Part shown: positions 33,448 to 36,642 of the stretch, one piece after another
Layout: each line of letters starts with the position of its first letter
Position numbering within the stretch: position 1 is the stretch's first letter
From: Escherichia phage Pipis
Strand: one strand, 5' to 3'
Length of the DNA: 40,625 bases
Sequence record: PV714130
Notes under the pieces: generated by a model
Databases searched by the model: none
Seen by the model: the letters and a program-made list of their open reading frames with translations, nothing else
Told to the model about the DNA's origin: nothing
Made by a program: the position numbers and the translations under genes

Positions 33448-36400
33448 ATGTCCACGATTACACAATTCCCTTCAGGGAACACTCAGTACAGGATTGAGTT
33501 CGATTACCTAGCCAGAACGTTTGTTGTTGTTACGCTGGCGAATAGCTCTAACCCTACCCTGAACCGTGTACTGGAAGTTGGTCGAGATTACCGATTCCTT
33601 AATCCAACGATGATTGAGATGTTGGTTGACCAATCAGGTTTCGACATCGTTCGTATTCACCGTCAGACTGGAACTGACTTAGTGGTAGACTTCAGGAATG
33701 GCTCAGTGTTGACAGCTAGTGACCTGACCAATTCAGAGCTTCAGGCTATCCATATTGCAGAAGAAGGTCGAGACCAAACGGTTGACTTAGCGAAGGAGTA
33801 TGCCGATGCTGCTGGTAGCTCTGCTGGCAACGCTAAGGATAGCGAGGACGAAGCACGCCGAATCGCTGAGAGTATCAGGGAAGCTGGTCTAATTGGCTAT
33901 ATGACCCGTCGCTCCTTCGAGAAAGGCTACAACGTTACAACATGGAGCGAGGTCCTGCTATGGGAAGAGGATGGTGATTATTACCGCTGGGATGGTACGC
34001 TTCCAAAGAACGTTCCTGCTGGTTCAACTCCTGAAACTTCTGGTGGGATTGGATTAGGTGCGTGGGTTAGTGTTGGTGATGCTGCTTTAAGAAGTCAGAT
34101 TTCAAACCCGGAAGGGGCAATACTCTACCCTGAATTACATAGAGCACGCTGGCTTGATGAAAATGATGTTCGTGGTTGGGGTGCTAAAGGGGATGGTGTC
34201 ACTGATGATACAGCAGCGTTAACGAGCGCATTAAACGACATACCGGTTGGACAAAAGATTAATGGCAATGGGAAGACATATAAGGTCACATCCCTGCCTG
34301 ACATTAGTCGCTTCATCAACACTCGTTTCCTTTATGAGCGCATTCCCGGACAACCTCTTTATTATGCCTCTGAGGAATTTGTTCAGGGGGAGTTATTCAA
34401 AATAACGGACACCCCTTATTACAATGCGTGGCCTCAGGATAAAGCGTTCGTATATGATAATGTGATATATGCACCTTACATGGGTGGCGATCGTCATGGT
34501 GTTAGTCGTCTGCATGTATCATGGGTTAAGTCTGGTGATGATGGTCAAACATGGTCTACTCCAGAGTGGTTAACTGATCTGCATCCAGATTACCCTACAG
34601 TGAACTATCACTGTATGAGTATGGGTGTATGTCGCAACCGTCTGTTTGCCATGATTGAAACACGTACTTTAGCCAAGAACGAATTAACCAATTGTGCATT
34701 GTGGGATCGCCCCATGTCTCGTAGCCTGCATCTTACTGGTGGTATCACTAAAGCTGCAAATCAGCGATATGCAACAATACATGTACCAGACCACGGACTA
34801 TTCGTGGGTGATTTTGTTAACTTCTCTAATTCTGCGGTAACAGGTGTATCCGGTGATATGACTGTTGCAACCGTAATAGATAAGGACAACTTCACGGTTC
34901 TTACACCAAACCAGCAGACTTCAGATTTGAATAACGCTGGAAAGAATTGGCACATGGGTACTTCTTTCCATAAGTCTCCATGGCGTAAGACAGACCTTGG
35001 TCTAATCCCTCGTGTCACAGAGGTACACAGCTTTGCTACTATTGATAACAATGGCTTTGTTATGGGTTATCATCAAGGCGATGTAGCTCCGCGCGAAGTT
35101 GGACTCTTCTACTTCCCTAATGCTTTCGACAATCCAGCTAACTATGTTCGTCGTCAGATACCAGCTGAGTATGAACCAGATGCGTCAGAGCCCTGCATCA
35201 AGTACTATGACGGTGTATTATACCTTATCACTCGTGGCACTCGTGGGGATAGACTGGGTAGCTCTTTGCATCGTAGTAGAGACATAGGTCAGACTTGGGA
35301 GTCACTGAGATTTCCACATAATGTTCATCATACTACATTGCCTTTTGCTAAAGTAGGGGATGACCTTATTATGTTTGGTTCAGAACGTGCAGAAAATGAA
35401 TGGGAAGCAGGTGCACCAGATGATCGTTACAAGGCATCTTATCCTCGCACCTTCTATGCACGCTTGAATGTAAACAATTGGAATGCAGATGATATTGAAT
35501 GGGTTAACATCACTGACCAGATTTATCAGGGCGGAATAGTTAACTCAGGTGTAGGTGTTGGTTCGGTAGTTGTGAAGGATAATTACATCTACTACATGTT
35601 TGGTGGAGAGGACCATTTTAACCCATGGACATATGGAGATAACTCAGCGAAAGACCCATTCAAATCGGACGGTCACCCCTCGGATTTGTATTGCTACAAA
35701 ATGAAGATTGGTCCAGACAATCGTGTTTCCAGAGATTTCAGATATGGTGCTGTACCCAACAGAGCTGTTCCAGTGTTTTTTGATACGAATGGGATTCGCA
35801 CTGTTCCTGCGCCAATGGAATTTACAGGGGATTTGGGTTTAGGTCATGTGACCATTAGAGCCAGCACCAGTAGTAACATTCGCTCTGAAGTTTTAATGGA
35901 AGGTGAGTATGGGTTTATCGGGAAATCCGTACCGACTAATAACCCGGCAGGGCAGCGCACCATATTTTGCGGAGGCGACAGTACCAGTTCTTCTTCTGGC
36001 GCACAGATTACGCTATATGGTGCAAATAACACCGACTCAAGGCGAATAGTTTACAACGGAGATGAGCATCTATTTCAGAGTGCTGATGTTAAGCCTTATA
36101 ACGATAACGTCACTGCGCTTGGTGGGCCTAGAAACCGTTTCACCACTGCATACCTCGGAAGCAACCCTATTGTTACTTCTAACGGGGAGAGGAAAACAGA
36201 GCCGGTAGTTTTTGATGATGCTTTCCTTGATGCTTGGGGTGACGTTCACTACATCATGTACCAGTGGTTAGATGCTGTTCAACTGAAAGGCAATGATGCT
36301 CGTATTCACTTCGGGGTTATTGCTCAGCAAATTCGTGATGTATTCATTGCACATGGTCTGATGGATGAAAACAGTACGAATTGTCGCTATGCTGTTCTGT

Positions 36401-36642
36401 GCTATGACAAGTATCCACGGATGACCGATACGGTATTTTCGCACAATGAAATCGTTGAACACACTGACGGGGAGGGTAATGTCACTACTACGGAAGAACC
36501 TGTATACACCGAGGTGGTTATTCACGAAGAGGGTGAGGAGTGGGGTGTTCGGCCTGACGGAATTTTCTTTGCTGAAGCCGCTTATCAGAGAAGAAAACTG
36601 GAAAGAATCGAAGCCAGACTTTCTGCTCTTGAACAGAAGTAA
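33448..36642 (+). CDS. 17: tail spike / tail fibre with endosialidase-type domain (K1F endoNF-like)
   Basis: N-terminus FDYLARTFVVVTL resembles the T7 gp17 anchor domain (FEYLARKFVVVTL); two sialidase Asp-box motifs SGDDGQTW (34531-34554) and SRDIGQTW (35275-35298); 1064 aa with Ser at residue 911 preceding a ~150 aa C-terminal domain, as recalled for endoNF. Confidence 0.85.
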   Translation: MSTITQFPSGNTQYRIEFDYLARTFVVVTLANSSNPTLNRVLEVGRDYRFLNPTMIEMLVDQSGFDIVRIHRQTGTDLVVDFRNGSVLTASDLTNSELQAIHIAEEGRDQTVDLAKEYADAAGSSAGNAKDSEDEARRIAESIREAGLIGYMTRRSFEKGYNVTTWSEVLLWEEDGDYYRWDGTLPKNVPAGSTPETSGGIGLGAWVSVGDAALRSQISNPEGAILYPELHRARWLDENDVRGWGAKGDGVTDDTAALTSALNDIPVGQKINGNGKTYKVTSLPDISRFINTRFLYERIPGQPLYYASEEFVQGELFKITDTPYYNAWPQDKAFVYDNVIYAPYMGGDRHGVSRLHVSWVKSGDDGQTWSTPEWLTDLHPDYPTVNYHCMSMGVCRNRLFAMIETRTLAKNELTNCALWDRPMSRSLHLTGGITKAANQRYATIHVPDHGLFVGDFVNFSNSAVTGVSGDMTVATVIDKDNFTVLTPNQQTSDLNNAGKNWHMGTSFHKSPWRKTDLGLIPRVTEVHSFATIDNNGFVMGYHQGDVAPREVGLFYFPNAFDNPANYVRRQIPAEYEPDASEPCIKYYDGVLYLITRGTRGDRLGSSLHRSRDIGQTWESLRFPHNVHHTTLPFAKVGDDLIMFGSERAENEWEAGAPDDRYKASYPRTFYARLNVNNWNADDIEWVNITDQIYQGGIVNSGVGVGSVVVKDNYIYYMFGGEDHFNPWTYGDNSAKDPFKSDGHPSDLYCYKMKIGPDNRVSRDFRYGAVPNRAVPVFFDTNGIRTVPAPMEFTGDLGLGHVTIRASTSSNIRSEVLMEGEYGFIGKSVPTNNPAGQRTIFCGGDSTSSSSGAQITLYGANNTDSRRIVYNGDEHLFQSADVKPYNDNVTALGGPRNRFTTAYLGSNPIVTSNGERKTEPVVFDDAFLDAWGDVHYIMYQWLDAVQLKGNDARIHFGVIAQQIRDVFIAHGLMDENSTNCRYAVLCYDKYPRMTDTVFSHNEIVEHTDGEGNVTTTEEPVYTEVVIHEEGEEWGVRPDGIFFAEAAYQRRKLERIEARLSALEQK

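Follow-up and report, generated by a model that had tools for sequence, protein, structure and literature searches.

Escherichia coli strains with the K1 capsule are responsible for neonatal meningitis, for sepsis and urinary infections, and for avian colibacillosis. Depolymerases of the endosialidase class are used as a reagent for polysialic acid and have also been tried as anti-virulence agents. The most thoroughly studied of these enzymes is endoNF, the tail spike protein gp17 of Escherichia phage K1F, which is known from crystal structures with and without substrate, from the structure of its chaperone domain and from a full mutational scan. In this work the genome sequence of Escherichia phage Pipis (PV714130), a stretch of 40,625 nt referred to as a whole as the window, was analyzed computationally. 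Its gene 17 (33448..36642 including the stop codon, plus strand) is, judged by its sequence, a new and very close allele of this already known enzyme.

In the K1F record (AM084414) the gene is entered as "precursor of gp17", an endosialidase tail spike; codons 2-910 make up the mature gp17*, and gp17-CTD, which is the intramolecular chaperone, starts at codon 911. The precursor cleaves itself by means of a Ser/Lys dyad, and in the K1F domain N912 and G956 are indispensable (PMC3742443). According to the cleavage mechanism that has been proposed, the Lys activates the Ser and an Arg of the neighboring subunit serves as a folding sensor; in pb1 of phage T5 this is Arg1250, located 13 residues before Thr1263, the residue that precedes the scissile Ser (PMC4690869).

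Gene 17 and its relationship to endoNF

Gene 17 of Pipis runs from the ATG at 33448 to the TAA at 36640-36642 as a single open reading frame (ORF), uninterrupted and with no frameshift, as seen both in the ORF list and by direct translation. The product is an endosialidase tail spike precursor of 1064 aa and 119 kDa. The gene is 97.7% identical in nucleotides to K1F gene 17 over its full length, with 73 nucleotide differences, and the protein is 97.4% identical to K1F gp17 (CAJ29390.1), to which it aligns without gaps. A first-pass annotation, made by a model from the letters of the window, had given a length of 1064 aa for endoNF, and the translation of CAJ29390.1 does have this length. On the opposite strand of gene 17 nothing of note was found, the minus-strand ORFs being short and lying inside the coding sequence.

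The same annotation had proposed that the spike keeps a T7-like N-terminal anchor, but that an endosialidase replaces its receptor-binding part. Both halves of this proposal were supported, and each detail of the annotation, coordinates included, proved correct. When gp17 was searched against the protein sequences of the PDB, the endoNF structures 1v0e, 3gvj, 3gvk and 3gvl were matched over aa 245-910 with E=0, and four Pfam endosialidase domains were recognized. Crystal structures at 97% identity span gp17 aa 245-1064. With E=0 for the endoNF structures and 6e-222 for the propeller model, chance is excluded as the source of the sequence match. Gene 17 is orthologous to the gene of endoNF, the endosialidase that has been studied in most depth, and it is almost certain that its product is a tail spike endo-alpha-2,8-sialidase working by the mechanism set out below.

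Domain architecture of the tail spike

Seven Pfam domains, each above its curated cut-off, were found in gp17, all encoded on the plus strand. The first is Phage_T7_tail, the tail-attachment domain of the T7 gp17 type (PF03906, aa 10-115, 33475..33792; E=1.1e-15, 58.1 bits with the cut-off at 25.2). It contains the anchor motif FDYLARTFVVVTL, located at aa 18-30 (33499-33537) by a script motif search, and the N-terminal chains of T7 gp17 in the PDB (7boz, 8dsp and 8e4g) match aa 6-116 with E values of about 1e-15 to 1e-16. The second, Tail_spike_N of the TSP1/Gp66 type (PF18668, aa 156-211, 33913..34080; E=4e-19), is the start of the part common to the endosialidases of unrelated phages, since blastp alignments begin at aa 141 for phage IME207 and at aa 116 for phage YX22.

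The endosialidase proper begins with End_N_terminal, the N-terminal extension at which crystallized endoNF also starts (PF12218, aa 246-312, 34183..34383; E=7e-37). It is followed by End_beta_propel, the six-bladed beta-propeller catalytic domain (PF12217, aa 313-754, 34384..35709; E=6e-222), which covers profile positions 1-366 of 367. Inside the propeller lie the catalytic residues and the two Asp-boxes noted in the first reading, SGDDGQTW (aa 362-369, 34531-34554) and SRDIGQTW (aa 610-617, 35275-35298), both of them where that reading had placed them; the pattern S-x-D-x-G-x-[TS]-[WFY] occurs nowhere else in gp17. The polysialic-acid-binding End_beta_barrel (PF12195, aa 424-506, 34717..34965; E=5.9e-48) is inserted in the propeller. 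The stalk, a beta-helix/beta-prism (aa 755-910, 35710..36177), corresponds to End_tail_spike (PF12219, aa 757-910, E=3e-78). Its last residue, Thr910, is also the C-terminal one of the mature protein, and the endoNF structures are aligned over their full length.

The remaining part, aa 911-1064 (36178..36639), is the self-cleaving C-terminal intramolecular chaperone, of 154 aa and 17.8 kDa, in agreement with the domain of about 150 aa and 17 kDa that had been anticipated. PDB 3gw6, which comprises the stalk and C-terminal chaperone of endoNF, covers gp17 aa 790-1064 (E=3.8e-181), and Pfam Peptidase_S74 (PF13884) matches aa 916-971 with 36.2 bits against a cut-off of 22. Every defining feature of an endosialidase, of a Peptidase S74 chaperone and of a T7-type anchor that a sequence can reveal is present.

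The tail spikes of the genus Kayfunavirus, to which K1F belongs, are modular, and the same scaffold could in principle carry a depolymerase of another specificity, directed against a non-K1 capsule. PDB 9vvr, a Kayfunavirus-type tail spike of 843 aa, is almost identical to gp17 over aa 1-264 and then diverges into a different C-terminal part. In gp17, however, what follows aa 264 is the very endosialidase, with 97% identity to endoNF and E=0, and this possibility is effectively refuted. The divergence of 9vvr begins within the motif GWGAKGDGVTDDT (aa 241-264, 34168-34239), and this region is a candidate recombination junction for swaps of catalytic modules. A weak pectate-lyase-like match in Pfam and weak glucanase matches in the PDB at aa 240-265 were caused by this motif.

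Catalytic and self-cleavage residues

Functional residues were compared among 13 gene 17 sequences, including those of Pipis, K1F and ten more fetched Kayfunavirus records, all of them encoding 1064 aa. In the deep mutational scan of K1F, H350, R549, E581, R596 and R647 were catalytic or substrate-binding and highly intolerant to substitution, and Q330, K585 and N699 were newly identified as essential; R812 and Y821 are stalk residues of the kind that coordinates polysialic acid, and R866-D994 is a key contact between stalk and chaperone (PMC13564897). All of these residues were invariant in 13/13 sequences, that is, in Pipis gp17 and its 12 relatives. In Pipis the catalytic and substrate-binding residues, identical to those of K1F, are encoded on the plus strand at 34495-34497 (H350), 35092-35094 (R549), 35188-35190 (E581), 35233-35235 (R596) and 35386-35388 (R647).

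The self-cleavage dyad is also conserved with respect to K1F. Residue 911 is indeed the serine that had been proposed as the autocleavage position (codon TCT, 36178-36180, plus strand), and Lys916 is encoded at 36193-36195. S911, N912, K916 and G956 were likewise invariant in 13/13 sequences. Ser911 is assigned as the scissile residue on the basis of the GenBank annotation of K1F, in which the boundary falls at 910/911, of the crystallized endoNF chains, which end at Thr910, and of secondary papers. In the translation an arginine, R897, stands 13 residues before T910, the same spacing as between Arg1250 and Thr1263 in T5 pb1, and by analogy with that protein R897 is a putative folding sensor.

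Loss of depolymerase activity, leaving a spike that only binds or does not mature, was considered at this point and was rejected as highly improbable. There is no positive evidence for it; the one change that could be invoked, E1008G, lies in the chaperone loop T977-H1026, which has been reported to be essential for folding (PMC3742443). Against it, the catalytic and cleavage residues are all intact and the ORF is full-length, with no frameshift. Moreover, the codons that differ from K1F are more often synonymous (41) than non-synonymous (28), as expected under purifying selection. In the K1F scan nearly all positions of the beta-strand extensions of the chaperone were tolerant, and K1F cannot infect without its tail spike (PMC13564897).

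As an active endosialidase, the Pipis spike would mature and act as described in the endoNF literature. Three precursor chains would fold and trimerize under the guidance of the C-terminal domain. [quoted passage not shown] The mature trimer would be joined to the tail through its T7-type N-terminal domain and would bind polysialic acid at sites on the barrel, the propeller and the stalk. Depolymerization of alpha-2,8-polysialic acid in the K1 capsule of E. coli would then allow the phage to reach the outer membrane.

Predicted capsule specificity

Specificity for the K1 capsule, and with it the dependence of the phage on K1, is a strong prediction, because gp17 is 97.4% identical to endoNF, retains all of the functional residues and has several of its closest relatives on hosts labelled K1. 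According to their records, the hosts of close relatives include O18ac:K1:H7, K1 LU_100, DSM 30083/ATCC 11775 and avian pathogenic E. coli (APEC) strains. Gene 17 sets the host range of the phage, whose predicted hosts are limited to E. coli with the K1 capsule. In the deep mutational scan of K1F, strains of E. coli K5 and of Klebsiella K1/K2 were not productively infected as a result of single substitutions (PMC13564897). A few conservative changes such as those of Pipis are therefore very unlikely to have altered the capsule type.

Nothing that was observed contradicts this interpretation, but it has three caveats. The enzyme activity, the self-cleavage and the K1-dependent plating of Pipis are all predicted from an identity of 97% to endoNF, and the protein carries four substitutions that were not seen elsewhere, V31A among the 12 relatives compared and I828V, D831N and E1008G among the phage records as a whole, two of them in the stalk. 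The mutational scan of K1F called the stalk a tuning knob for host discrimination (PMC13564897); since I828V and D831N lie in this domain, the plating efficiency of Pipis on individual K1 strains may differ from that of K1F. In addition, some of the records with near-identical genes list hosts without a K type or hosts of other genera (Acinetobacter, Klebsiella), which are probably labelling issues.

Two such records were noted. PV615262.1, "Acinetobacter phage vB_Aba_01KA", has a 96.4% identical endosialidase gene, and its host label is odd for a polysialic-acid depolymerase. The label of KX523699.2 / NC_031924.1, "Salmonella phage IME207", with Klebsiella pneumoniae listed as host and a 93.8% identical cassette, is odd likewise.

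Natural variation of gene 17

At least 80% of gene 17 was covered by 30 phage records. Among the substitutions that separate Pipis gp17 from K1F, 24/28 recur in other phages of the genus Kayfunavirus within the 13-sequence comparison, and several of the phages that share them were isolated on hosts labelled K1 in the records. The other four, V31A, I828V, D831N and E1008G, were unique to Pipis among the 13 sequences. I828V (35929-35931, plus strand) and D831N (35938-35940, plus strand) are located in the stalk. When segments of the protein were searched by tblastn in 50,697 phage records, neither the stalk segment aa 815-859 nor the chaperone segment aa 992-1031 gave a 100% match, and the best matches differed exactly at I828V/D831N and at E1008G, respectively. 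The exact gp17 protein was absent from a public protein collection of 15 billion sequences, and the text of the K1F mutational scan makes no mention of V31A, I828V, D831N or E1008G (PMC13564897).

The substitutions are unevenly distributed over the domains. Identity to K1F was 100% in the beta-barrel, 99.4% in the chaperone, 97.7% in the propeller and 97.6% in the N-terminal part. The stalk was the most diverged domain, at 94.2% compared with 97-100% elsewhere, and it was also among the most variable in the 13 natural sequences, with 14.1% variable positions. R837, S848 and Q853, the putative stalk site for polysialic acid in endoNF, are all kept in Pipis gp17, R837 and Q853 being invariant in 13/13 sequences.

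The divergence of the stalk is consistent with another, unlikely possibility, namely that the spike is an active endosialidase whose stalk substitutions have shifted its substrate preference or processivity, so that Pipis and K1F would differ in how they discriminate among K1 strains, for instance according to whether the capsule is O-acetylated or according to the O-antigen background. The changes invoked are the unique I828V and D831N together with I838T, E844D, G845S, T849S, T850S and S895R, which are common to few relatives. D831N removes a negative charge from the stalk, near the putative binding site formed by R837, S848 and Q853, and V828 and N831 occur together in no phage record in the tblastn search of aa 815-859. 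In the K1F scan, gain-of-function and host-specific variants were densest in the stalk (PMC13564897). However, all of the changes are conservative, R812 and Y821 are as invariant as R837 and Q853, and any effect would be quantitative and remain within K1 specificity. In its most specific form, the idea is that I828V, D831N and the rare S895R, which lies two residues from the putative sensor Arg897, tune the grip on polysialic acid and thereby give a different processivity or range of K1 strains from K1F; the odds of this are equally low. If true, the Pipis allele would provide a naturally occurring case of the "tuning knob" role that the K1F deep mutational scan suggested for the stalk.

The endoNF orthologue of Pipis adds no new biology, since all of the prior work was done on an enzyme with which it shares 97% identity. 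Its practical value lies in a confident annotation and in one more natural allele for comparison with the published mutational map.

Genome context and expression signals

The Pipis sequence is a complete genome of the genus Kayfunavirus (K1F-like podoviruses of the T7 group, family Autographiviridae), colinear with K1F in blastn blocks of mostly 92-97% identity. Its best whole-genome relatives are Kayfunavirus records with about 94-96% identity. Gene 17 follows gene 16 (29486-33382), which encodes internal virion protein D, and precedes the holin gene 17.5 (36777-36974), in the same order as in K1F.

Directly upstream of gene 17, the 19-nt sequence AACTATCACTATAGGAAAC (33382..33400, plus strand) would, from its likeness to T7-group promoters, function as a promoter for the single-subunit RNA polymerase of the phage. 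A search of the genome with this 19-nt query, allowing up to 3 mismatches, gave 10 matches, all of them on the plus strand (2239, 5317, 6964, 8031, 17029, 20259, 21258, 25666, 33382 and 39644) and all with the core CTATCACT(A/G)TAGG; shuffled sequence gave 0.02 matches on average. A ribosome-binding site, AGGAGG (33438..33443, plus strand), was read from the sequence 4 nt before the ATG.

Other expression signals were sought with negative results. In the interval 33000-37200, scans for sigma-70 promoters and intrinsic terminators gave counts no higher than expected from shuffles, and the 134-nt spacer 3' of gene 17 held no intrinsic terminator. The 5' leader (folding z = -1.5) and the 3' spacer (z = -0.4) were no more stable than shuffled sequences, and no RNA family was found in the whole genome by an Rfam scan at gathering thresholds.

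Gene 17 and the rest of the genome differ in their nearest relatives. The left 25 kb is closest to phages PhiNW-B1 and Esher2 (about 95.7%), unlike gene 17, which is closest to Esher6 and Esher7. The right-hand 15.6 kb that contains gene 17 is only 94.5% identical to K1F in nucleotides, compared with 97.7% for the gene itself. The conservation of gene 17 and its differing relatives suggest a mosaic genome or a stronger constraint on the spike.

The first stretch of the genome (1-253) begins at the equivalent of position 319 in K1F, whereas K1F 1-193 is matched, at 87.6%, by the end of the genome (40310-40526). The record was therefore linearized at a different point from that of K1F. The terminal repeat may have been collapsed in it.

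Three plus-strand ORFs encode HNH_3 homing endonucleases according to Pfam, at 14672-15097 (141 aa, E=5e-19), 18288-18698 (136 aa, E=2e-12) and 29055-29504 (149 aa, E=4e-15), and all three are in segments with no K1F counterpart at those sites. The 3' end of the DNA polymerase ORF is overlapped by the first of them; the last, placed between gene 15 and gene 16, runs into the start of gene 16 at 29486. In K1F (AM084414), gene 5, for the DNA polymerase (12917-15686), is annotated as two joined pieces with gp5.3 inside. The polymerase ORF of Pipis (12613-14784, 723 aa) is uninterrupted and K1F 14927-15530 is absent, and thus Pipis appears to lack the intervening sequence of K1F and to have, in its stead, an HNH gene that stands free where the polymerase gene ends (3').

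Further plus-strand ORFs at 15590-16039 (149 aa), 9239-9694 (151 aa) and 10451-10630 (59 aa) fall, in whole or in part, in stretches that have no match in K1F, and they gave no Pfam hit. The ORF at 7260-7697 (plus strand, 145 aa) encodes a DUF3310 protein that is only partly K1F-like, with about 75% identity over 160 nt.

Comparison with known systems

The closest characterized counterpart of the Pipis spike is endoNF of phage K1F (CAJ29390.1; PDB 1v0e, 3gvj-l, 3ju4 and 3gw6). The two proteins have the same length, the same order of domains, both Asp-boxes and the same catalytic, binding and self-cleavage residues, and their genes share genome position and upstream promoter context. They differ by 28 substitutions, four of which (V31A, I828V, D831N and E1008G) were not found elsewhere. 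Among deposited sequences the closest are those of Escherichia phages MirsaeidiM_Esher6 (PQ585404) and Esher7 (PQ593108), with 98.2% nucleotide identity; their tail spikes are 98.9% (12 differences) and 98.5% (16 differences) identical to gp17 in amino acids, respectively.

The C-terminal domain resembles the Peptidase S74 or chaperone auto-processing domains of T5 pb1, of the appendages of phages GA-1 and phi29 and of eukaryotic MYRF, which share with it a Ser-x4-Lys dyad at the start of the domain. Their self-cleavage depends on trimerization, and by analogy the same is predicted for the Pipis domain. PDB 3gud, from GA-1, matches gp17 aa 914-1014 (E=2.4e-12). The Pipis chaperone has the long K1F-type loop T977-H1026, which is lacking in most other intramolecular chaperone auto-processing (ICA) domains (PMC3742443).

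At the other end of the protein, the N-terminal tail-attachment domain is homologous, over about aa 6-116, to that of the T7 gp17 tail fibre, which comprises T7 gp17 residues of about 1-150. The T7 protein continues with a fibre shaft and a tip that binds lipopolysaccharide (LPS), which in Pipis are replaced by the endosialidase and the chaperone.

The endosialidase itself is found on other carriers. The phi92 endosialidase (PDB 4hiz) matches gp17 aa 246-908 (E=1.5e-237). In the siphovirus IME207 (Shuimuvirus) the tail spike contains the same cassette from about aa 141 to the C-terminus with 91% identity, and in phage YX22, of the Ackermannviridae, it does so from aa 116 to the C-terminus with 79% identity. 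Both have the same catalytic and cleavage residues as Pipis, but unrelated N-terminal modules for attachment to the virion. Endosialidase cassettes are known to be exchanged as modules between phage families, as swappable receptor-binding modules on a conserved anchor.

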